64,000 bases of DNA from Ferruginibacter sp. (lineage in GTDB: Bacteria; Bacteroidota; Bacteroidia; Chitinophagales; Chitinophagaceae), in NCBI GenBank assembly GCA_037045295.1, contig JBAOHS010000008.1:401171-465170 (forward strand). Direction: 5' to 3'. Below are positions 12,001-23,471 of the stretch, piece by piece (positions within the stretch are counted from its first letter, which is position 1; each line of letters opens with the position of its first letter). The notes under the pieces were generated by a model. The model was given only the letters and a program-made list of their open reading frames with translations. It had not been told where the DNA came from and made no database searches. Position numbers and translations under genes: made by a program.

Positions 12001-15000
12001 TTAAGGTATAAATACCGGCAAAACAGTTGTTTTTCCATCTGCCGAAGTAATGCTCATTTTATAATTGCCTGATGGGAACTGGTTACCCAAAGACAATGTT
12101 TTGATTTCTGCTGCTGAATTAATTTTAACCTGAGCCTGCTGTACCAGTTGTGCACTGGTATTGTAAATTTTTACAGTGTAGGTTCCTGCAGCCTGGTTGG
12201 TGAAATGAATGCGTGCAATCCTGTCGGCAACCGGATTCGGATATACTGTAATCGTTCCTGGCGTTTTAACCGGTTCAACTTTTACAATATTGCTGAACTG
12301 AATATATCCGTTTGCACTGATCGCTTTAATTCTGTAGAAATTGTTTCCGGTGAATGGATGCTGATCGATTTGCTGGTAATCGGTATTTCCACCATTATTG
12401 AGTTTTGGCAACACATCAGCAATTGATGTAAACTGACGACCATTGTCACTTCTTTCGATGCTGTATTTTTCAATACCAATTTCATTGTCTGCTTTCCAGT
12501 TTACAGCAATCGTAGCATCACTGTTACGGCTAGCCGAAAGTTTAGTGATGATCACCGGAACAGTTCTCAGTGCTTTGAAAACAACATAGAATCTATCAGC
12601 AGCAGCAGAAGCTGCATCGGTAGTAACAGTGAAATCCACAGAAGTGATTCCGTTCAATGCAACCGGTGTGGTGGTATTGAGGAACTTATCTACCAATTTG
12701 GCTTCAAGACCTGCATTGGCCATATTCTCAGGATTGAACCTGAACTGGTAAGTTTGTCTGCGTAGATTATTCATCCTGTAATAAACAGTATCGCTGCTGT
12801 TCACCATTTTCCTGGTTTCGAGCGCATAATTGTTGCCCGATTTTACCACGCCGATGTTTTCACCTGTATTCATGATTTTCAGGGCGTCGTTGGCATCGTG
12901 ATCATTTGAAAAATCATCATCCAATGCTACCACGTTTCCATCAGACAAAGGTGCATCGTTTGCATTTCCGGCATGTAAAGCAAGGCGGAAGTATTGCCTG
13001 TTGGCCAAACCTGAAGCATTGTTTGCATTTCCACGGAATACCATGTTATGTGCATTTACTTTACTTGCTTCAGTGAATGTTACGGTTCCTCCTGCATTGG
13101 TTGAGTAAACAAAGAAGGCTTGTCCGGATTGTATTAACTGATAAGGAGTGTTGGCATCATAATTTGCCGTACCACCCGGAATGGGTTTCCAGCCATTGGC
13201 CTGACTGATGGTTTGATACCCTCCCAGCCCGTTGTAATTCGCAGTAAGCAATGGATCCCAAACATAATATTTCTCATCAACTCCTCCGGTTTTTCCAACC
13301 AGGCTGAAATCAATGGCTGATGCATACGGATTACCGACTGCTTCAAATTTATCGGGCATTACAGTAGTTGGCGGTGGTGCATCAACAGTTAGGGTTGAAG
13401 GAATATACAATTTACCCCTTGCCCTGAGTATGGTTGCATTCGCAGGCTGATTGAAAGCAGTTATGCTTCTGTCGCCCCGAACGAATATCATGTATCCTTT
13501 CTGGTTAGTAATGGGTAAAGATGTTGTGCTGCTGATTCCATCCCAGCCATGTGTAACATGATTATATGTTTTCATCGATGGGCCAGGTGCAGTGAATACA
13601 TCAAAACCCAATGCCGGTGTAGTGGCGCCAGCCAGGTTGCTGGTAATCTGTGTACCAAAACCTGGTACCGGATTCGCATTCGGCGTTGCTGCTCCTTCCT
13701 GCCATGCCTCTTTCACAGTTTGTGTGGTATTCAACGGAACAGAAAGGAATTGCCATGATTTAGCATGTTCGCCCGGATTCACACCGGTAGCAATGAATCT
13801 TTCTACAACAAATCTTCCGGTGCCATAAGTGATGGCGTCGTTGGTATTGATTTTATCAACATTCGCTGTATGAGCCATACCCGACTTCAACGTAATATCT
13901 CCTGTTGCGAGATTCAACTTACCCGCAGTTAAAAGCGATAATTGTTTATCAATGGCGAGGTTTCCATTTACATTTACTCCCACCGTATTATCTACATTAA
14001 AATTGTAAAACTGTATACTGGTACCTGTAGAATTATATTGTTGTGCTACAGTTCCATTCAATAATAATGTACCATTGTTATGACTGAAAGCACTGTTGCT
14101 GTTACTGAAGTTACCCTTCACCGTTAGTGTTCCGGCCGGTGCTGTTTTAACCGATGTACCAGAAAGTGTTAACCCTTCGTAATCTATCAGGTTGGTAATG
14201 GTTTGAGCAACGGTTCCGGCAGGACCTCCATAATACTCAACAGTGGAGTTTGGTTCGAGAACTATAGACGGACTATTTGTATTTTCAATAGAAGTCACCA
14301 ATGAACCGGTAAAACCTGCTGCGTTACCGATTTTAAACACACCGCCATTCTTTACTGTAAAGGTTCCGCCTGATTGCATCTTAACGCCTGTTGCAACTGT
14401 TGGGTTGGCAACATTACTTCCGGAGACATTCAGGTTATAATAAGTTGGCAGATCGAGCCTGATGTCTTCGGTTGTACCTGCAACATTATTTGTAAAATCA
14501 ACCGTTGTACCTGTACCTAATGAATATGTACCTAAGGCATCGGGTTTAATACCGGTACCGGCTGTACGATAAACAGAAGTTCCTGTCATGGTAAGATTGG
14601 TACCTGCACCACCGAATACATAATTCTGTGCATCCACGATGGCCGCATCTTTAATCTGTATTGTTCCTGTTACAGATGGAGTGGCATTATTCAGTGTTTT
14701 AGTACCACTGGTTGAGAAGGTAAGATTCCTGTAATTTCTTCCACCACGTAATAACTGATTACCTGAACCATACAATTCAATTGTACCTCCTGTTATGTTA
14801 TAAGTCGCGATATCAAATTCAGGTAAAATAGTATTCAAACGGGCAAGTTTCAAAAGTCCTGCTGAAATATTAAACGGACTGGTATTGCTGTGCAGTCTGA
14901 ACGTTCCGGCATCATGAGTGCCTGCAGACAGTGTGTAGGCTGAAGAACCTGCACCCTGCACAAATACATCCGACAATTGGGTTAATGTACTGGCGGCTGT

Positions 15001-18000
15001 TTTTCTCAGCTGGTAGAATGTTTCTCCACCAGTTGTATTGATCGTTTGTGTTGTAGTACCATTGAAGTCTACAATACTGTTTTGTTCATTAAAACCTGAT
15101 TGGTTGTAATTCGTCCAGTTTCTTCCCAATGAAATGGTTCTGGTACCACCAATAAATATTGCAGCACCGGTAATGGTAATATCATTTACTACGGTAATAT
15201 TACCAGTTGGATTCTTATTATCTGCATTACTCAAAAGAAGATTTCCATAAACTGGTATATGATGAACTGTTTGACCAATCGGGGCATTGTATTCTACCGT
15301 ACTGGTTGCATTAAAATTATAAGTACTGTAGTTTGCAGGGAAATTACTGGTTCCCACACCGCCATTGTTTCTTCCTATTTTTAAAGTAGAGCCAGCCGCA
15401 AGATTGATACTGCCACCTGCGCTGTTCCTGTTGATCAGTTGTTGAGCGATGTCCAAAGTTGCATTGGTATTTACATTCAGGTTACCAAAATTTCTGAAAC
15501 CACCTGAACCTGATCCCGCCAATACAACTACCGGTGCATTTGTTTCACCAACTTCAGTTGAAGTAGCAGAGAGATAAATAACCTGGCTTCCTGAATTCTG
15601 CGTTACTGTTTGTGTTCCTGTACCATCAAAAATTACCTGTGCCGGTTTGTTGGAAGCATCATTTCCGATACCACCAAGGTTGGCATTTCCCTGCAGATAA
15701 AATTTGCCGGTATTATTGGTTGATGCATACAATGGCATCACCTGGTTGGTAGACGCTGTACCCACCGTAGTTAAATTACCTCCGTAGCGTACAACACCAC
15801 CAGTAGCCACACTGATTTGTGTGATTGAATTGGCAATGGGTATACCGCCACAGTTTGTTGTTAAAGATGTATTATTTAAGATATTTAATGTTCTTGTTCC
15901 CACATTCAACCGGAAGGTTGTTGGTGTGAAATTAAAGAACTGATCTCCTGTTAAATTAGTTGTAAGTGATTTAATGGTTACGTTGTTATTAAAATCAATC
16001 ACTGAATTGGTACCAAAAATGAAAGATGAAAAATCCACATTCATCACAACATCGTTACAATCTGAAGGCACACCTTTAGGCAACCAGTTTTGTGGATTAT
16101 TAAAATTATCATCTCCTGTACCGCCGGTAACACCATCACCATTCCAGGTTTTGGTAACTGCACCTTGTGTGATGGTCATTGCTGAAGCTGCAGAGTTACA
16201 ACCATTGGCGTCAGTAACTGTGAGGCTGTAATTGGCCGGATAAGCAACAGGTGTAGCAGTAGGATTGGCTGCAGATGCAGAACTCAATCCGGTTGCAGGT
16301 GACCATGTATAAGTATATGGACCTGTACCGTTTGATGCTGCCGGCGTTCCACCAATTACAGTTGATGTAACTGAAGTACAGAGTACCTGGTTTCCACCGC
16401 TATTGGCAACCGGTAATGGGTTTACAGTAACGGAAACAGCTGTGGTTGAAAAACAACTTCCTGCTGTTGCGGTTATAGTGAAGTTCGTTGTTTGTTGAGT
16501 ACCGGTATTATTGGTAAGCGTACCTGCAATTGTACTACCCGTTCCATTGTTGGCGATGCCGGTTAAATTTCCGGTATTATTTCTCGACCAGCTGAAATTG
16601 GTACCGGGTACACTATTCGGATTGGTAATAGTAATAGTACCGATTGCTGATCCTGAACATCTTGTTTGTGTTGATGGAGTAGCATTTACTGTTGGTCTTG
16701 GGTTAACCGTAACCGTTACAGTAAAGGTTATAGTACATGGCGGTGTTGAACCATACACAGGAGTAACTGTGTAAGTAGCTGTTTGTGCTGTAGCTGTATT
16801 ATTGGTAAGTGTTCCGGAAATACTGTTGCCTGATCCAGCTGCACCACCGGTCATGCCACCGGTAACTACAGGTGCCGACCAGCTATAACTTGTTCCTGAT
16901 GGGAAACCCGATGGCGTTACCGTAAATGCTGTACCACTACATCCGGTTGTACTGGTAGAGCCTATCGAGCTGGTAGGGTTTACCGTTAGTGTAACTACAT
17001 CACTGGTAACTGTACAACCACCAGACTGCATAATCACTCTGAACTGATGTGTTCCAATAATAGAACTGAATGATGCAACAGGATATTCAGTTGCATTCGC
17101 CGGTAATCCTGCACTAGTCCATGGACCAGCATTGGTAGAATACTGCCAGTTAAAAGTAGCTCCGCCTGGAACTGTATAGTTATAAAGATCAATATCATGT
17201 TCTCCACCTGGGCCTATTTCGCCACAAGTGATAATGGTTTCACTGTTATCATCAGCCACTTGATTAAAACTGATATTCGGAGCCGTAGGAGGATTAGAAA
17301 AAACAATATTTACGGTTGACTGTGAAGTACAGGTTCCGTTGGTGATTGTCCAGCGCAACTGGTATGTTCCTGCACCACCAGCACGGGTAAACGTAGCTGT
17401 AGGGTTAGTTGTACTGCTGAATTGTGCCAAGGAGGTATTCGGTCCTGAAACTACAGACCATGCGCCGGTTCCTACAACGGGAGTATTCGCTGCCAAAACA
17501 ACATTGTTAGCTGGCATACAAACGCTCTGATTGCTTCCAGCAACTGATGTTGTTGGTACCTGGGTTACAGTCACTGCTTTTGTTCTTACAGCACTTGTTC
17601 CACATGAATTACCTGCAGTTACGGTTATATTACCGTTATCACCAGCGGCGCCGGCTGTAACTGTAATGGCAACGGTACCCTGTCCTGCGGTAATTGTCCA
17701 TCCTGCAGGAACAGTCCAGGTATAAACGGTAGCATTGGGTACTGCTGTTATGCTATATGCGTTACCGGTAGTGTTTGAACAGGCAGCATTGGCGCCTGTT
17801 ATGGTACCAGGTGTGGCCGGTACCGGAGGATTCATTGTAACTGTAAGACTTCTGATAGAAGCATAGTTAACAGTGAGCACCGGTGCATTGGCCGCTGAAG
17901 AATAACCAAAGAAATTATACGTTGCAGTTCCTCCTCTTACCAATCCCATTCCGATCCAACCCGGAGCTGCAATCCTTCCCTGGATATCTGTATTGGCCGT

Positions 18001-20310
18001 TGCATTCAGGTTCAGGGATATCTGACCTGTATTAGCCCATGTACCAGAATTATAATTTGCACCGCTTCCGCAGGCAGTGTATAATGTATTAGCGGCAGTA
18101 CTAACAGGATCATTTCCTCCCAGTGCGTTAACCGTATTGGTTGCACCCGAAGCAGAACTACCGTTATTGGTTAAACGAAGTATAGAAGATGTGATGGTTG
18201 ATCCTGTTGGAATTCCACTTAACGGGAATTTAAGGTATCCCCTTCTTTCTGCTCCACCACCTTGCACTGAAATATTATCGGTTGTTTTCGGACCGTTATT
18301 ATCTGTCCAACCTGTATTGTTGGTAGCTGCTACCGGTTTAATATTGATTACCTGAGCCACATCACTGCTTCCGCAGGAGTTTACAGCAGCCACTGTGAAG
18401 TTACCGCCAGCAGCACCTGTAGTGACTGTGATTGAATTGGTGCCCGACCCTGAAGTGATAGACCATCCGGCAGGAATCGTCCAGTTATAACTGGTGGCGT
18501 TCGCAACAGGTGTAACACTATAAACTTGTCCGGTTGTGTTCGGACAAGCCGGTGATGGTCCAGAAATTACACCCGGTGTGGCAGGTGCTGCAGGGTTAAC
18601 CACCACTGCTTTGATCTGAGCTGTACTTGTACCGCAGCCATTGCCAGCAGTTACAGTGATATCGCCATTCTGACCAAATGAACCGGCTGTAACTGTTATA
18701 GAAGTTGTTCCTGCACCAGCGGTAATTGACCAACCGGTTGGAACAGTCCATGTATAGGTTGTTGCATTGGCAACAGGAGCAATCGTAAAAGATAAACCAG
18801 TAGTTCCGGCACAAGCCCCGGCTACTCCGCTGATCACTCCCGGTGTTACAGGAATTGCAGGGTTAAGGGAAATTGCTCTTGTTTGAGTACCGCTGTTACC
18901 ACATGAATTTGCTGCATTCACAGTTATGTTACCAGCAACTGTTCCTGAAGTAACGGTGATGGATGTAGTACCTGCGCCTGCAGTGATCGTCCAGCCGCCT
19001 GGTACAGTCCAGTTGTAAGTTGTTGCATTGGCAACCGGAGCGATGGTATATACCAATCCTCCCGTTGAAGGACACACAGGTGAGCTACCCGAAATTGATC
19101 CCGGTGTAGCGGGTGCCGGTGGGTTCACATCCTGTGAAAGAACAGATGAAGTAGAAGTCGTATAATCAGCATCTCCTGAATATACGGCTGTTAAACTATG
19201 TGATCCTGTTGAAAGAGTTGAAGTACTGAATGTTGCTGAACCAGCAGTAATTGTTGCTGTTCCTAATAAAGTAACCCCATCAAAAAACTGTACTGTTCCG
19301 GTAGCGACAGCAGGGTTAACCGTTGCCGTTAGTGTTATTGAAGAAGAGAAACAAGATGGGTTGATATCTGAAATAAGTGATGTTGTAGTAGAAGCCTGAC
19401 TTACTGTAAAATCGTTTGTTACAGAGAAAGTCAATCCCGATGCATTGGCCATCAGTTTCTTTACACCAGCGGCATTGATCTGCAGATCAGTGTAGGCAAT
19501 GGTTCCGTTACCGGCAGCCGTTCCAATATCGAGGATTGTTGTCCCTGATAAAATACCTGTACCGGCAGAAAGTGTAATGGTAACATTTTTGCTGGCACCC
19601 AGTCCATTGGTACTCGGATTACCAAACTGGTCTTCTGTTATCACTATTGGTTGCTGAGCAAAAATATTTCCAACAACAGCTCCCGATGGTTCAGTGGTAA
19701 ACACCAGAACGGCGGCATCTCCCGGCTGTTGTGATAAGCTTCCAAAATCAGTTCCTGAAGATCCATCTGTATTGCTGGTAGTTATAATGCCGGTAATGGT
19801 AGCTGTTCCCGGGTTTGCAGTTGCAACATACAATTGTCCTGATGAAGGGATGGCAGCACCATCTGTGGCCTGAACTTCTATACCTGAAATGGTAATTACA
19901 TCCAGGGATGATATAGCAGTAACGTCTATGGTTAGGGTAATTTCTGTTGAGCTAACGGCAAGGGATACACTACTAACATCTGCTCCTGTAGCTGCAACAG
20001 CACCAGAAGCTGTATTAAAAGTCCAGCCTGCGGGTGCAGTTATAATAAGTGTTTTAGCAGTTCCGCCGGTATTGACAAAATCATCAGCAGCAGACTCGCT
20101 TATGATGATATCACCCAATGGCGAAAAAACAGGAGCACTTGCATTGGCAGCTTTATCGGCAGATATCAAAGTACCGCCGGTTGCAGGAGTTACAATAACA
20201 TCAGCTTTCAGGCTGAATGAAAGCAACAACAGCAGGCTGATGATTCCCGTTAGCCTCACTTTATTAGCGAAAGCTTTAGATGCAGTTGAATTTTGTAAAC
20301 GTGTTTTCAT
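12001..20310 (-). CDS. 2769-aa T9SS-secreted adhesin-like protein with Ig-like group 3, four PKD-like repeats, a DNRLRE-like domain, SprB-like and beta-helix-like regions, a shared C-terminal module and a CTD
   Basis: Intact ORF with a signal peptide (...LLLLLSFSLKA-DV), a C-terminal TVYPNPV...GNYKMSI...VFIP sorting domain and recognisable repeats. Confidence 0.92.
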   Translation of the reverse strand: MKTRLQNSTASKAFANKVRLTGIISLLLLLSFSLKADVIVTPATGGTLISADKAANASAPVFSPLGDIIISESAADDFVNTGGTAKTLIITAPAGWTFNTASGAVAATGADVSSVSLAVSSTEITLTIDVTAISSLDVITISGIEVQATDGAAIPSSGQLYVATANPGTATITGIITTSNTDGSSGTDFGSLSQQPGDAAVLVFTTEPSGAVVGNIFAQQPIVITEDQFGNPSTNGLGASKNVTITLSAGTGILSGTTILDIGTAAGNGTIAYTDLQINAAGVKKLMANASGLTFSVTNDFTVSQASTTTSLISDINPSCFSSSITLTATVNPAVATGTVQFFDGVTLLGTATITAGSATFSTSTLSTGSHSLTAVYSGDADYTTSTSSVLSQDVNPPAPATPGSISGSSPVCPSTGGLVYTIAPVANATTYNWTVPGGWTITAGAGTTSITVTSGTVAGNITVNAANSCGNSGTQTRAISLNPAIPVTPGVISGVAGACAGTTGLSFTIAPVANATTYTWTVPTGWSITAGAGTTSITVTAGSFGQNGDITVTAGNGCGTSTAQIKAVVVNPAAPATPGVISGPSPACPNTTGQVYSVTPVANATSYNWTIPAGWSITSGSGTNSITVTTGAAGGNFTVAAVNSCGSSDVAQVINIKPVAATNNTGWTDNNGPKTTDNISVQGGGAERRGYLKFPLSGIPTGSTITSSILRLTNNGSSASGATNTVNALGGNDPVSTAANTLYTACGSGANYNSGTWANTGQISLNLNATANTDIQGRIAAPGWIGMGLVRGGTATYNFFGYSSAANAPVLTVNYASIRSLTVTMNPPVPATPGTITGANAACSNTTGNAYSITAVPNATVYTWTVPAGWTITAGQGTVAITVTAGAAGDNGNITVTAGNSCGTSAVRTKAVTVTQVPTTSVAGSNQSVCMPANNVVLAANTPVVGTGAWSVVSGPNTSLAQFSSTTNPTATFTRAGGAGTYQLRWTITNGTCTSQSTVNIVFSNPPTAPNISFNQVADDNSETIITCGEIGPGGEHDIDLYNYTVPGGATFNWQYSTNAGPWTSAGLPANATEYPVASFSSIIGTHQFRVIMQSGGCTVTSDVVTLTVNPTSSIGSTSTTGCSGTAFTVTPSGFPSGTSYSWSAPVVTGGMTGGAAGSGNSISGTLTNNTATAQTATYTVTPVYGSTPPCTITFTVTVTVNPRPTVNATPSTQTRCSGSAIGTITITNPNSVPGTNFSWSRNNTGNLTGIANNGTGSTIAGTLTNNTGTQQTTNFTITATAGSCFSTTAVSVTVNPLPVANSGGNQVLCTSVTSTVIGGTPAASNGTGPYTYTWSPATGLSSASAANPTATPVAYPANYSLTVTDANGCNSAASAMTITQGAVTKTWNGDGVTGGTGDDNFNNPQNWLPKGVPSDCNDVVMNVDFSSFIFGTNSVIDFNNNVTIKSLTTNLTGDQFFNFTPTTFRLNVGTRTLNILNNTSLTTNCGGIPIANSITQISVATGGVVRYGGNLTTVGTASTNQVMPLYASTNNTGKFYLQGNANLGGIGNDASNKPAQVIFDGTGTQTVTQNSGSQVIYLSATSTEVGETNAPVVVLAGSGSGGFRNFGNLNVNTNATLDIAQQLINRNSAGGSINLAAGSTLKIGRNNGGVGTSNFPANYSTYNFNATSTVEYNAPIGQTVHHIPVYGNLLLSNADNKNPTGNITVVNDITITGAAIFIGGTRTISLGRNWTNYNQSGFNEQNSIVDFNGTTTQTINTTGGETFYQLRKTAASTLTQLSDVFVQGAGSSAYTLSAGTHDAGTFRLHSNTSPFNISAGLLKLARLNTILPEFDIATYNITGGTIELYGSGNQLLRGGRNYRNLTFSTSGTKTLNNATPSVTGTIQIKDAAIVDAQNYVFGGAGTNLTMTGTSVYRTAGTGIKPDALGTYSLGTGTTVDFTNNVAGTTEDIRLDLPTYYNLNVSGSNVANPTVATGVKMQSGGTFTVKNGGVFKIGNAAGFTGSLVTSIENTNSPSIVLEPNSTVEYYGGPAGTVAQTITNLIDYEGLTLSGTSVKTAPAGTLTVKGNFSNSNSAFSHNNGTLLLNGTVAQQYNSTGTSIQFYNFNVDNTVGVNVNGNLAIDKQLSLLTAGKLNLATGDITLKSGMAHTANVDKINTNDAITYGTGRFVVERFIATGVNPGEHAKSWQFLSVPLNTTQTVKEAWQEGAATPNANPVPGFGTQITSNLAGATTPALGFDVFTAPGPSMKTYNHVTHGWDGISSTTSLPITNQKGYMIFVRGDRSITAFNQPANATILRARGKLYIPSTLTVDAPPPTTVMPDKFEAVGNPYASAIDFSLVGKTGGVDEKYYVWDPLLTANYNGLGGYQTISQANGWKPIPGGTANYDANTPYQLIQSGQAFFVYSTNAGGTVTFTEASKVNAHNMVFRGNANNASGLANRQYFRLALHAGNANDAPLSDGNVVALDDDFSNDHDANDALKIMNTGENIGVVKSGNNYALETRKMVNSSDTVYYRMNNLRRQTYQFRFNPENMANAGLEAKLVDKFLNTTTPVALNGITSVDFTVTTDAASAAADRFYVVFKALRTVPVIITKLSASRNSDATIAVNWKADNEIGIEKYSIERSDNGRQFTSIADVLPKLNNGGNTDYQQIDQHPFTGNNFYRIKAISANGYIQFSNIVKVEPVKTPGTITVYPNPVADRIARIHFTNQAAGTYTVKIYNTSAQLVQQAQVKINSAAEIKTLSLGNQFPSGNYKMSITSADGKTTVLPVFIP
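17565..19125 (-). repeat. Four intragenic PKD-like repeats of about 85 aa (TPG.I.G...C......Y.I..V.NAT.Y.WTVP.GW.IT.G.GT..ITVT)
   Basis: Three consecutive copies at about 18345-19125 and a fourth at about 17565-17830, after the DNRLRE-like insert. Confidence 0.85.
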
Positions 20311-22115: not shown

Positions 22116-22147
22116 TTTGTTTGAGTAAAAACGCCCCCTTATCTTTG
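22116..22147 (+). promoter_or_regulatory. Bacteroidetes housekeeping promoter for tRNA-Val
   Basis: TTTG at 22116-22119, a 20-nt spacer, then TATCTTTG at 22140-22147. Confidence 0.75.
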
Positions 22148-22165: not shown

Positions 22166-22240
22166 GGGAGTTTAGCTCAGTTGGTTTAGAGCATCTGCCT
22201 TACAAGCAGAGGGTCGGCGGTTCGACCCCGTCAACTCCCA
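22166..22240 (+). tRNA. tRNA-Val (anticodon TAC), CCA not encoded
   Basis: GGGAGTT/AACTCCC acceptor stem with discriminator A, GCTC/GAGC D-stem, TCTGC-CTTACAA-GCAGA anticodon arm, GGCGG-TTCGACC-CCGTC T-arm. Confidence 0.97.
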
Positions 22241-23047
22241 CAGAGCCTCACAATTTGTTGTGAGGCTTATTTATTTTTCCACGAATAAAAGATTTTAGCG
22301 CTGTTCTGTTTTGAGCATCCCGATTTACAATCGGGAGGGTCGGCGGTTTCCCGATGATTCGGGATCAACTCCCACAGAGCCTCACAATTTGTTGTGAGGC
22401 TTATTTATTTTTCCACGAATAAAAGATTTTAGCGCTGTTCGGTCTAGAGCATCCCGATTTACAATCGGGAGGGTCGGCGGTTTCCCGAAGATTCGGGATC
22501 AACTCCCACAGAGCCTCACAATTTGTTGGGAGGCTTATTTATTTTTTCCACGTATAAATGATTTTAGCGCTGTTAGGTTTGGAGCATCCCGATTTACAAT
22601 CGGGAGGGTCGGCGGTTTCCCGATGATTCAGGATCAACTCCCACAGAGCCTCACAATTTGTTGTGAGGCTTATTTATTTTTTCCACGTATAAAAGATTTT
22701 AGCGCTGTTCGGTTTAGAGCATCCCGATTTACAATCGGGAGGGTCGGCGGTTTCCCGATGATTCGGGATCAACTCCCACAGAGCCTCACAATTTGTTGTG
22801 AGGCTTATTTATTTTTTCCACGTATAAAAGATTTTAGCGCTGTTCGGTTTAGAGCATCCCGATTTACAATCGGGAGGGTCGGCGGTTTCCCGATGATTCG
22901 GGATCAACTCCCACAGAGCCTCACAATTTGTTGTGAGGCTTATTTATTTTTCCACGTATAAAAGATTTTAGCGCTGTTCGGTTTGGATCATCCCGATTTA
23001 CAATCGGGAGACTCGGCGGTTTCACGATGATTCGGGATCAACTCCCA
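22241..23047 (+). repeat. Six tandem 134-135 bp tRNA-Val-derived repeats, each a terminator hairpin plus a remodelled pseudo-tRNA
   Basis: Units start at 22241, 22375, 22509, 22644, 22779 and 22914. Units 4 and 5 are identical; the others differ from them by 4-6 changes. Every unit ends in the tRNA 3' sequence TCAACTCCCA. Confidence 0.97.
22244..22278 (+). terminator. Terminator-like hairpin after tRNA-Val, repeated at the start of every array unit
   Basis: AGCCTCACAA-TTTG-TTGTGAGGCT perfect 10-bp stem followed by TATTTATTTTT. Confidence 0.8.
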
Positions 23048-23168
23048 CAAACCCCGCATTTCAGTGTAAGGTTTTACTTTTTATATCATAGCTGCCTGCC
23101 CCGTATTTCTGTTATATAGCATTCCAACATTGATATTCCTGAAAAATGCTACTTTTGTACTTTGATAT

Positions 23169-23471
23169 ATGTCAGCATTTCCATCATACAACACTTCTAC
23201 AAAGCAGGATATAGAAACAGATGTTCTTACCCTTACGGAACCACCCTGTAGTTTACTCGTTTGGAACGACGATGTAAATACATTTGAGTGGGTAATAGAA
23301 ACCCTGATAGAAATCTGCGGCCATTCACAGGAACAGGCAGAGCAGTGTGCCTTCCTGATTCATAGCAAAGGCAAATACGCTGTTAAAAATGGCAGCTACG
23401 ACGTTCTGAAGCCTCAATGCGATGCGATAACCGATAGAAAAATCGGTGCCACCATTGAAATCCTCGCCTGA
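23169..23471 (+). CDS. clpS: ATP-dependent Clp protease adaptor ClpS
   Basis: LLVWNDDVNTFEWVIETL...HSKGKYAV motif; TACTTTTG promoter at 23150-23157. Confidence 0.92.
   Translation: MSAFPSYNTSTKQDIETDVLTLTEPPCSLLVWNDDVNTFEWVIETLIEICGHSQEQAEQCAFLIHSKGKYAVKNGSYDVLKPQCDAITDRKIGATIEILA

Follow-up and report, generated by a model that had tools for sequence, protein, structure and literature searches.

Here we describe an array of six tandem pseudo-tRNA units that directly follows the tRNA-Val gene of a Ferruginibacter sp. in a stretch of 64,000 nucleotides (assembly GCA_037045295.1, contig JBAOHS010000008.1, positions 401,171 to 465,170; hereafter the window). The membership of the array in a family of cassettes that link tRNA genes, small GIY-YIG nuclease genes and perfect hairpins is well supported, and we lean, with modest confidence, towards the reading that the array is a nuclease-less (non-autonomous) satellite of this selfish family, expanded through DNA breaks and possibly cut in trans. 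A full cassette consists of the 3' end and terminator of a tRNA gene, a gene for a single-domain GIY-YIG protein of 80-100 aa, and a 5'-truncated copy of that tRNA with a perfect GC-rich hairpin (stem TCC(C)...(G)GGA) in place of one or two of its arms. Of these parts the window retains only the terminator and a two-hairpin pseudo-tRNA-Val module, in six copies. The first-pass annotation of the window had presented the units as a candidate novel repeat system; they do not stand alone and belong instead to the tRNA-linked GIY-YIG/hairpin cassettes, as a member without the nuclease.

The sole intact tRNA-Val(UAC) call lies at positions 22166-22241 on the forward strand (ARAGORN; Rfam RF00005, 70.1 bits) and the genome, with 37 tRNAs, has no second Val-UAC gene. 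Directly 3' of it, six units of 134 or 135 bp are arranged head to tail (22241-23047), for which Tandem Repeats Finder reported a period of 135 and 6.1 copies (22231-23049, 96% matches, score 1505). Each unit starts with the terminator hairpin of the tRNA, GAGCCTCACAATTTGTTGTGAGGCT, and a T-rich tract, followed by a short A/T-rich linker and the 5'-truncated tRNA-Val copy, which reads TTTAGCGCTGTTCGGTTTAGAGCA-TCCCGA-TTTACAA-TCGGGA-GGGTCGGCGGTT-TCCCGA-TGAT-TCGGGA-TCAACTCCCA. The 5' acceptor strand GGGAGTT is missing from the units, the native anticodon arm TCTGC-CTTACAA-GCAGA has been turned into TCCCGA-TTTACAA-TCGGGA, and the native T-arm segment CGACCCCG into TCCCGA-TGAT-TCGGGA. Both rewritten arms carry one common stem, which is found in none of the 37 native tRNAs of the genome.

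Several claims of the first-pass annotation were borne out. The tRNA-Val gene and its six tandem pseudo-tRNA units are real according to ARAGORN, Rfam, Tandem Repeats Finder and metagenome depth, and the rewriting of two tRNA arms to the same stem is not the product of drift. The units cannot be chargeable tRNAs, since the acceptor strand is absent and neither ARAGORN nor the Rfam tRNA model (E ≤ 1) recognised a tRNA in any of them; at this threshold the true tRNA gave the only Rfam match. Nor is the array a CRISPR, because whole 135-bp units are repeated and there are no unique spacers between them. An ORF (open reading frame) of 112 aa inside the array (22623-22961) was rejected as spurious and matches no family.

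All units lie on the forward strand and measure, in order, 134, 134, 135, 135, 135 and 134 bp. Unit 1 (22241-22374) has its terminator at 22243-22267, the anticodon-position hairpin at 22318-22336 and the T-position hairpin at 22349-22364; the corresponding parts of unit 2 (22375-22508) are located at 22377-22401, 22452-22470 and 22483-22498 (with the loop AGAT). In unit 3 (22509-22643), the terminator (22511-22535) contains one mismatch, the anticodon-position hairpin lies at 22587-22605, and the T-position hairpin (22618-22633) has one broken pair (TCAGGA). Unit 4 (22644-22778; terminator 22646-22670, hairpins 22722-22740 and 22753-22768) is identical to unit 5 (22779-22913; terminator 22781-22805, hairpins 22857-22875 and 22888-22903). 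Unit 6 (22914-23047; terminator 22916-22940, anticodon-position hairpin 22991-23009) is the most decayed and likewise has a T-position hairpin with one broken pair (23022-23037, TCACGA). The hairpins at the anticodon position are therefore perfect in all six units and those at the T position in four of six. The units differ from their consensus at 19 places, 16 of which are substitutions and 3 length changes within a single T-run, in agreement with the earlier observation that substitutions predominate; divergence is greatest in the edge units 3 and 6. Unit 4 folds into three strong hairpins, and none of 200 shuffled sequences folded as well (DNA z-score -6.7).

The copy number was checked in Logan contigs of four metagenome runs from four studies (X1, X2, X3 and X5). 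In these runs the flanks were covered 8-15x and the collapsed unit contig of 131-164 bp was covered 38-82x, a ratio of about 4-7, and the contigs ended at tRNA-Val and resumed in the last unit. The depths suggest about four to seven copies in four independent metagenome assemblies. A joint from 22242 to 23032 in runs X5 and X25 was considered as an empty or deletion allele and rejected; it contains 21 foreign bases, has a side of 20 bases, and was judged to represent the tRNA-Val locus of another organism.

Relatives within the genus carry nuclease-bearing counterparts of the array at the same tRNA. In the genome G017, tRNA-Val is followed by 6.2 tandem units of 341 bp with 99% identity, each composed of the tRNA 3' part, the terminator, an 84-aa GIY-YIG ORF (PF01541, E = 1.8e-11) and a pseudo-Val with the hairpin TCCCGA-TTTATAA-TCGGGA. 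G006 has an ORF-less pseudo-Val with the two-hairpin layout of the window and, further on, a GIY-YIG ORF that is closed by a two-hairpin pseudo-Val like that of the window, in which both 5' arms read TCCTGA and both hairpins consequently contain a T.G wobble; a pseudo-Val copy of G006 is 85% identical to positions 58-135 of the window unit. In G034, a slightly different tRNA-Val is followed by a two-hairpin pseudo-Val that tracks its own tRNA and then by clpS, which marks the position as syntenic with the window. The two-hairpin module is conserved in three species, and in other members of the genus the tRNA-Val locus is empty or contains the ORF only. Given these cassettes of the relatives, the unit of the window is the cis module of the Val-type cassette, multiplied six times without the gene.

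Two further observations concern the genomes of these relatives. G017 contains 26 copies of the GIY-YIG ORF, arranged in no fewer than six tandem arrays whose periods are about 340-390 bp (for example L027 679-2789; C4:316953-318420; C4:341958-342858; C1:158483-159492; C1:188812-190511; C10:242556-243578), an extreme expansion compared with the 0-11 copies in the other members of the genus. In G034, the short-read contigs C76 and C58 (L031 and L030) end and begin inside the pseudo-Val unit. Such arrays break assemblies at tRNA loci, and copy numbers taken from draft genomes are therefore underestimates.

The genome under study itself encodes four small GIY-YIG ORFs, each positioned immediately 3' of a tRNA gene and in its orientation (two at tRNA-Glu, C10:396096-396341 and C10:396441-396686; one at tRNA-Met, C10:168517-168765; and one at tRNA-Ser, C5:569253-569504), and pseudo-tRNA repeats with TCC...GGA hairpins are present at each of these three tRNA loci. 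At tRNA-Ser(GGA) (C5:568600-569504), four pseudo-tRNA-Ser units of about 120 bp are located between promoter and tRNA, and the ORF follows directly 3' of the tRNA; in these units TCCCGA-TCGAA-TCGGGA stands in place of the D arm and TCCCGC-TGAATTG-CGGGA in place of the anticodon arm. At tRNA-Met (C10:168500-169400, minus strand), one pseudo copy lies upstream, and the ORF and four or five ORF-less pseudo units of about 100 bp with the hairpin TCCGCC-TGA-GGCGGA lie downstream. Downstream of tRNA-Glu (C10:395979-396760) lie two units with a GIY-YIG ORF; a pseudo-tRNA forms the end of each, and a TCCC...GGGA hairpin interrupts its T loop. Among the pseudo-tRNA array loci of this genome, only the Val array lacks a nuclease gene. 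A search for the unit in the genome and at other tRNA loci, as had been suggested, thus gave a divided answer: the 135-bp unit itself is found nowhere else in the genome, and its design recurs at tRNA-Ser, tRNA-Met and tRNA-Glu.

The same design is widespread beyond the genus. A scan of species-representative genomes for the motif GCATCCCGA-N4-9-TCGGGAGGG yielded at least 120 loci; among the matches listed, nearly all belonged to Bacteroidota (Chitinophagaceae, Bacteroidales, Flavobacteriales, Pedobacter, Saprospiraceae), and many hairpins occurred in arrays of up to 21 copies. The 80 loci that were parsed contained 145 hairpins, most of them beside a real tRNA (Val-UAC being the commonest, with Lys, Met and Asn also represented), and in 27 of the 80 a GIY-YIG ORF ended just 5' of the hairpin. 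The arrays are of two kinds, with 5'-truncated units downstream of the tRNA or 3'-truncated units upstream of it. The complete genome of Paraflavitalea speifideaquila provides an example of the latter, with seven units upstream of tRNA-Met, and Pedobacter cryophilus has three ORF units of 345 bp. The motif was rare in viral contigs (14 matches).

Because a second sample of 30 loci from the genus was picked by the ORF alone, it avoids a bias towards hairpins. A same-strand tRNA was located 13-75 bp upstream of the first ORF at 21 of these loci and within 300 bp at 25, and a perfect TCC...GGA hairpin was nearby at about 21. Individual genomes of the genus contain between 0 and 26 copies of the GIY-YIG ORF. 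The ORFs of the family encode single-domain proteins of 79-100 aa (PF01541) in which Y6, Y17, G19, R28, H32 and E64 are invariant; NCBIfam holds no model for them, and a sequence search of the PDB returned only UPF0213 structural-genomics entries as the nearest solved structures. A phylogenetic tree separates the ORFs according to the tRNA that they accompany, with groups for Ser (support 97/92), Met (96/86), Arg and Val, and the stems vary by lineage as well (TCCCGA at Val, Ser, Arg and Leu; TCCGCC at Met; TCCCGC at Pro; TCCCAACC at Asp; TCCCGT at Asn). Across the loci examined, 210 distinct hairpins were perfect and 18 had one mismatch. The window array shares the hallmarks of this family: a truncated copy of the adjacent tRNA with arms replaced by a perfect TCC...GGA hairpin, a tandem arrangement with the intact tRNA, and homology of its unit to the nuclease-bearing units of G006.

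Similar cassettes are also present in some Proteobacteria. In the Burkholderiales genomes G245 (C10; L204/L209) and G230 (C10; L205/L210), a tandem series of three to six GIY-YIG ORFs lies downstream of tRNA-Arg(ACG), and every ORF is accompanied by a TCCCGAC-TTAA-GTCGGGA hairpin; the tRNA-nested design thus extends beyond Bacteroidota. Both genomes also contain exact copies of the NTS repeats known from Neisseria. Some of the hairpin-rewritten pseudo-tRNAs were called as genes by ARAGORN, under odd anticodons or types (tRNA-Asn(ATT), tRNA-Ile(TAT), tRNA-Stop(TTA) and tRNA-???); such calls were encountered at L039 480-689, L098, L124 5609, L059, L120 and L122.

By analogy with the Ssn nucleases and with the phage nuclease SegB, both compared below, single-stranded DNA would be cut at the hairpins, the nuclease would act in trans, and breaks would drive the expansion of the array. 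The hairpins would fold while the region is single-stranded, during replication or heavy transcription of the tRNA, and an Ssn-like nuclease encoded elsewhere in the genome would bind them and nick the DNA a few bases 5' of the stem. The immediate 5' flank of each hairpin matches the true tRNA exactly (GGTTTAGAGCA and GGGTCGGCGGTT), which would allow the broken end to anneal in a shifted register to an adjacent unit or to the tRNA gene, and homologous repair would then add or remove whole units. The real tRNA-Val would be spared from cutting because it lacks the hairpin. The best candidate for the trans-acting nuclease is the ORF at the tRNA-Ser locus, since the repeats at that locus share the TCCCGA stem; in relatives, TCCCGA hairpins also flank the ORFs of the Ser clade.

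A number of results weigh against this account. Neither the window nor contig C8 contains a GIY-YIG ORF, so that any action of a nuclease would have to be in trans, and none of the four ORFs in the genome falls into the Val clade of the tree. No GIY-YIG ORF was found in the 99%-complete genome of G034, in which the pseudo-Val is nevertheless kept; units of this type can therefore persist without the nuclease. The SRM motif of the Ssn system (HGTCWYN(0-2)YYVSBRHN(0-5)WNVSBRGN(0-2)RNCYNB) has no match in the window and only three scattered, chance-like matches in the whole genome, although a canonical NTS example does match it, and the hairpins of the window lack the conserved GTC 5' flank of the NTS. 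The copy number is a depth ratio of collapsed contigs and does not come from spanning reads. Finally, the placement of the hairpins exactly at the tRNA arms and the retention of anticodon-loop remnants are not explained by the model.

A bolder version of the satellite reading, which we consider less likely than not, would regard the array and its nuclease-bearing relatives as an undescribed class of mobile or self-amplifying elements that works without integrase or transposase. An Ssn-like nuclease would nick single-stranded DNA beside its own hairpin, which is embedded in a copy of a tRNA gene; the end freed by the nick, being identical to the tRNA, would invade the tRNA gene, the cassette would have spread or been amplified at that tRNA lineage by lineage, and arrays without a gene would be satellites that are serviced in trans.

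The strongest competitor, which we nevertheless regard as rather unlikely, is that the array is a passive relic: a cassette would have lost its nuclease gene, the unit would have been multiplied by slippage or unequal crossing-over, and neither a nuclease role nor any other function would remain today. The missing ORF at the locus, the missing Val-clade ORF in the genome and the nuclease-free pseudo-Val of G034 all agree with this explanation, direct repeats of 135 bp suffice for RecA-dependent expansion, and the edge units are decaying, with a broken pair in two of the six T-position hairpins. It accounts less well for the hairpins that are still perfect, six at the anticodon position and four at the T position, and for the large excess of perfect hairpins over those with one mismatch in the whole family, which points to maintenance or very recent spread. 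The conservation of the two-hairpin module in three species speaks against a mere relic in the same way, as does the presence in this genome of a nuclease whose own locus carries the matching stem type.

It is improbable that the units form a functional array of tRNA-like RNAs, in which processed RNAs of about 135 nt would serve, for example, as decoys for a tRNA-binding enzyme or an anticodon nuclease and the stems would bind protein. The predicted RNA fold of the unit is strong (z-score -4.8), the anticodon loop UUUACAA is kept, and the T.G pairs of the G006 copies would be G.U wobbles in RNA. In addition, unit contigs of low depth (2-4x) without flanks were present in some RNA-labelled metagenome libraries, a signal that is indistinguishable from DNA carry-over and could arise in this way from a sequence of six copies. 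The counts of G.T and A.C mismatches on the tRNA-sense strand (7 and 4, with 7 others) have no power to tell which strand folds. No Rfam family matches the unit, and no RNA binding is seen with SsnA, the relative of the associated protein that has been characterised (PMC11893778). The arrangement of transcription signals is also unfavourable. A regex scan identified a single canonical TAnnTTTG box ahead of the array, the Bacteroidota-type -7 promoter box of tRNA-Val (TATCTTTG, 22140-22147, forward strand), and an identical TATCTTTGCC box is located upstream of tRNA-Val in the relatives. Within the units, the same scan detected no promoter box other than one created by a substitution in unit 3 (TAGGTTTG, 22574-22581), which fits the Bacteroidota -7 consensus and is probably due to chance. 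Since a strong terminator stands at the start of every unit and promoter boxes are lacking, the distal units are expected to be barely transcribed. Identical central and decayed edge units are what unequal exchange would produce; together with the lack of promoters, the terminators and the absence of a recombinase gene, this pattern fits unequal exchange and argues against a role as RNA, and the array probably has no RNA function.

We consider it very unlikely that the units are stacked attachment (att) scars left by repeated integrase-mediated integration and excision at the 3' end of tRNA-Val. The units do end in the tRNA 3' end TCAACTCCCA followed by an element-type terminator, as in the attL and attR sites of tRNA-targeting islands, and the distal edge of the array has a different terminator. 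There is, however, no integrase, transposase or other recombinase gene in the neighbourhood of the array, the units hold nearly the whole tRNA body rather than an att core, and the associated gene encodes a GIY-YIG nuclease and not an integrase. Analogous arrays upstream of tRNAs carry 5' halves and are therefore not producible by att duplication.

Equally doubtful is a derivation from repeats of the REP/BIME type (repetitive extragenic palindromes and bacterial interspersed mosaic elements), handled by a Y1 (HUH) transposase or another hairpin-binding host protein rather than by a GIY-YIG nuclease. REP elements likewise are intergenic hairpins that form arrays, and one Y1_Tnp-like gene is present in the genome (C5:168628-168973), but this gene is near none of the arrays, and the positional link is with GIY-YIG ORFs and tRNAs. 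The CCCGA...TCGGG hairpin is moreover not dispersed: it has 35 matches in the genome, against 3-43 for control palindromes, 15 of them in two arrays, and the only cluster besides the Val array is formed by the pseudo-tRNA-Ser units. An assembly artefact, in which one copy or fewer than six were inflated by the assembler, is the least credible explanation; the copy number does come from depth ratios, but these agree in four independent runs, the 16 substitutions among the units form a nested pattern, and homologous arrays are present in many other assemblies, including complete genomes.

The array is flanked by genes for a protein sorted by the type IX secretion system, ClpS, a hypothetical protein and Tex. 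An alignment by eye suggests that a diverged terminator-like remnant (CAAACCCCGCATTTCAGTGTAAGGTTTTAC..., 23048-23085, forward strand), read directly from the sequence at the distal end of the array, is an old copy of the terminator of the units. The downstream neighbour clpS (23169-23471, forward strand; PF02617, E = 4e-18) lies outside the element. An ORF of 2769 aa is located upstream of the gene for the sorted protein (12001-20310, minus strand). Rfam matches to RefA1 in the window were dismissed as chance (17-20 bits, compared with a cut-off of 94 bits).

If the nuclease-hairpin reading is correct, the tRNA genes of Bacteroidota and some Proteobacteria host a selfish-element design that was not found in the literature searched, and the single-strand-specific Ssn nucleases would be tied to a concrete genomic niche and to copy-number dynamics. 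The nuclease lineages, each with a hairpin of its own (TCCCGA, TCCGCC, TCCCAACC, TCCCGT and others), would then represent a catalogue of candidate site-specific cutters of single-stranded DNA. The array in the window is a clean nuclease-less example and is suited to testing action in trans. The arrays also have practical consequences, since they disrupt short-read assembly at tRNA loci, and the hairpin-rewritten pseudo-tRNAs are an annotation hazard that leads to false tRNA calls.

The first-pass annotation had named the 178-bp terminator repeats of Escherichia coli tyrT as the nearest precedent. These repeats are tandem, lie directly 3' of a tRNA gene and each end with a copy of the tRNA 3' end, of which only a short piece is repeated; to our knowledge, they have no rewritten arms, no common hairpin and no associated nuclease family. 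A closer precedent is provided by the Ssn nucleases and their NTS/SRM hairpins (PMC11893778). SsnA of Neisseria meningitidis, a 94-aa protein with GIY-YIG as its single domain (CDD cd10448; Chenal et al. 2025, PMC11893778), binds the NTS hairpin repeat CGTCATTCCCGCGMAVGCGGGAATCYRG, whose core is the dRS3 sequence ATTCCC-N8-GGGAAT, exclusively in single-stranded form; cleavage takes place a few bases 5' of the hairpin, and neither double-stranded DNA nor RNA is acted on (PMC11893778). Cutting is abolished by the exchanges Y6A, Y17A and E64A, and Ssn homologs have diverse, partly exclusive cleavage specificities, each being flanked by its own variant of the repeat (PMC11893778).

The cassettes described here resemble this system in the size and single-domain architecture of the GIY-YIG protein (about 80-100 aa), in the presence of Y6, Y17 and E64 at the numbering of the SsnA mutants, in the pairing of the nuclease with a short perfect hairpin repeat (core TCCCG...CGGGA, compared with CATTCCCGCG...GCGGGAATC in the NTS), in the repeats that flank the nuclease gene, and in the lineage-specific hairpin variants. 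A profile of the family ORFs detects small ORFs with E = 1e-14 to 1e-26 in genomes with exact NTS copies, and the apparent homology to Ssn rests on domain, size, residue numbering and these profile hits. The two systems differ in that the hairpins described here sit within units derived from tRNAs, where they take the place of arms, and occur at tRNA loci only instead of being dispersed in hundreds of copies, and in that the array of the window has no adjacent nuclease gene, which the related arrays of G006 and G017 possess. The text of Chenal et al. (2025) contains no occurrence of 'tRNA', 'Bacteroid' or 'tandem' (PMC11893778). The association of an Ssn-type nuclease with hairpin repeats is already known; for cassettes nested in tRNA genes we could not find a published description in the literature searched. 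With regard to a match of the unit to a described repeat family, which the first-pass annotation had considered, a likeness of the hairpin core to dRS3/NTS can be upheld, and a full match cannot, given the mismatch to the SRM motif and the absence of the unit from Rfam and from the literature searched.

The Neisseria intergenic mosaic elements (NIMEs) consist of dRS3 hairpins that flank RS units of 50-150 bp in variable copy number; they are thought to be recombination substrates and have been described as specific to Neisseria (PMC1797815). They share with the present array the punctuation of units of about 50-150 bp by GC-rich inverted repeats of 20 bp, and differ in that NIME units are heterogeneous families that are not derived from tRNAs and that dRS3 reads ATTCCC-N8-GGGAAT. 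The hairpins of the window (TCCCGA-N4/7-TCGGGA) lack the ATTCCC and GGGAAT ends, and the architecture is therefore only analogous.

SegB of the T4/T6 phages is a free-standing GIY-YIG homing endonuclease encoded in a tRNA cluster (Chihara et al. 2026, PMC13096335). In phage T6, it cuts inside tRNA genes and drives a recombination-dependent tandem amplification of tRNA plus nuclease gene (PMC13096335). The cassettes likewise place a GIY-YIG gene next to tRNA genes, and the six-unit array of G017 resembles the product of such a tandem amplification. SegB differs in being a phage gene, the cassette family being chromosomal, and in cutting double-stranded DNA, and its amplified units carry a full-length tRNA instead of hairpin-rewritten pseudo-tRNAs; the units of the window contain no nuclease gene within the amplified segment. 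Although it has neither terminal inverted repeats nor target-site duplications and is tandem at one locus instead of dispersed, the array is also comparable to miniature inverted-repeat transposable elements (MITEs) and other non-autonomous derivatives, as it is short and gene-less, keeps the cis structures of its autonomous relative, and could be acted on in trans.

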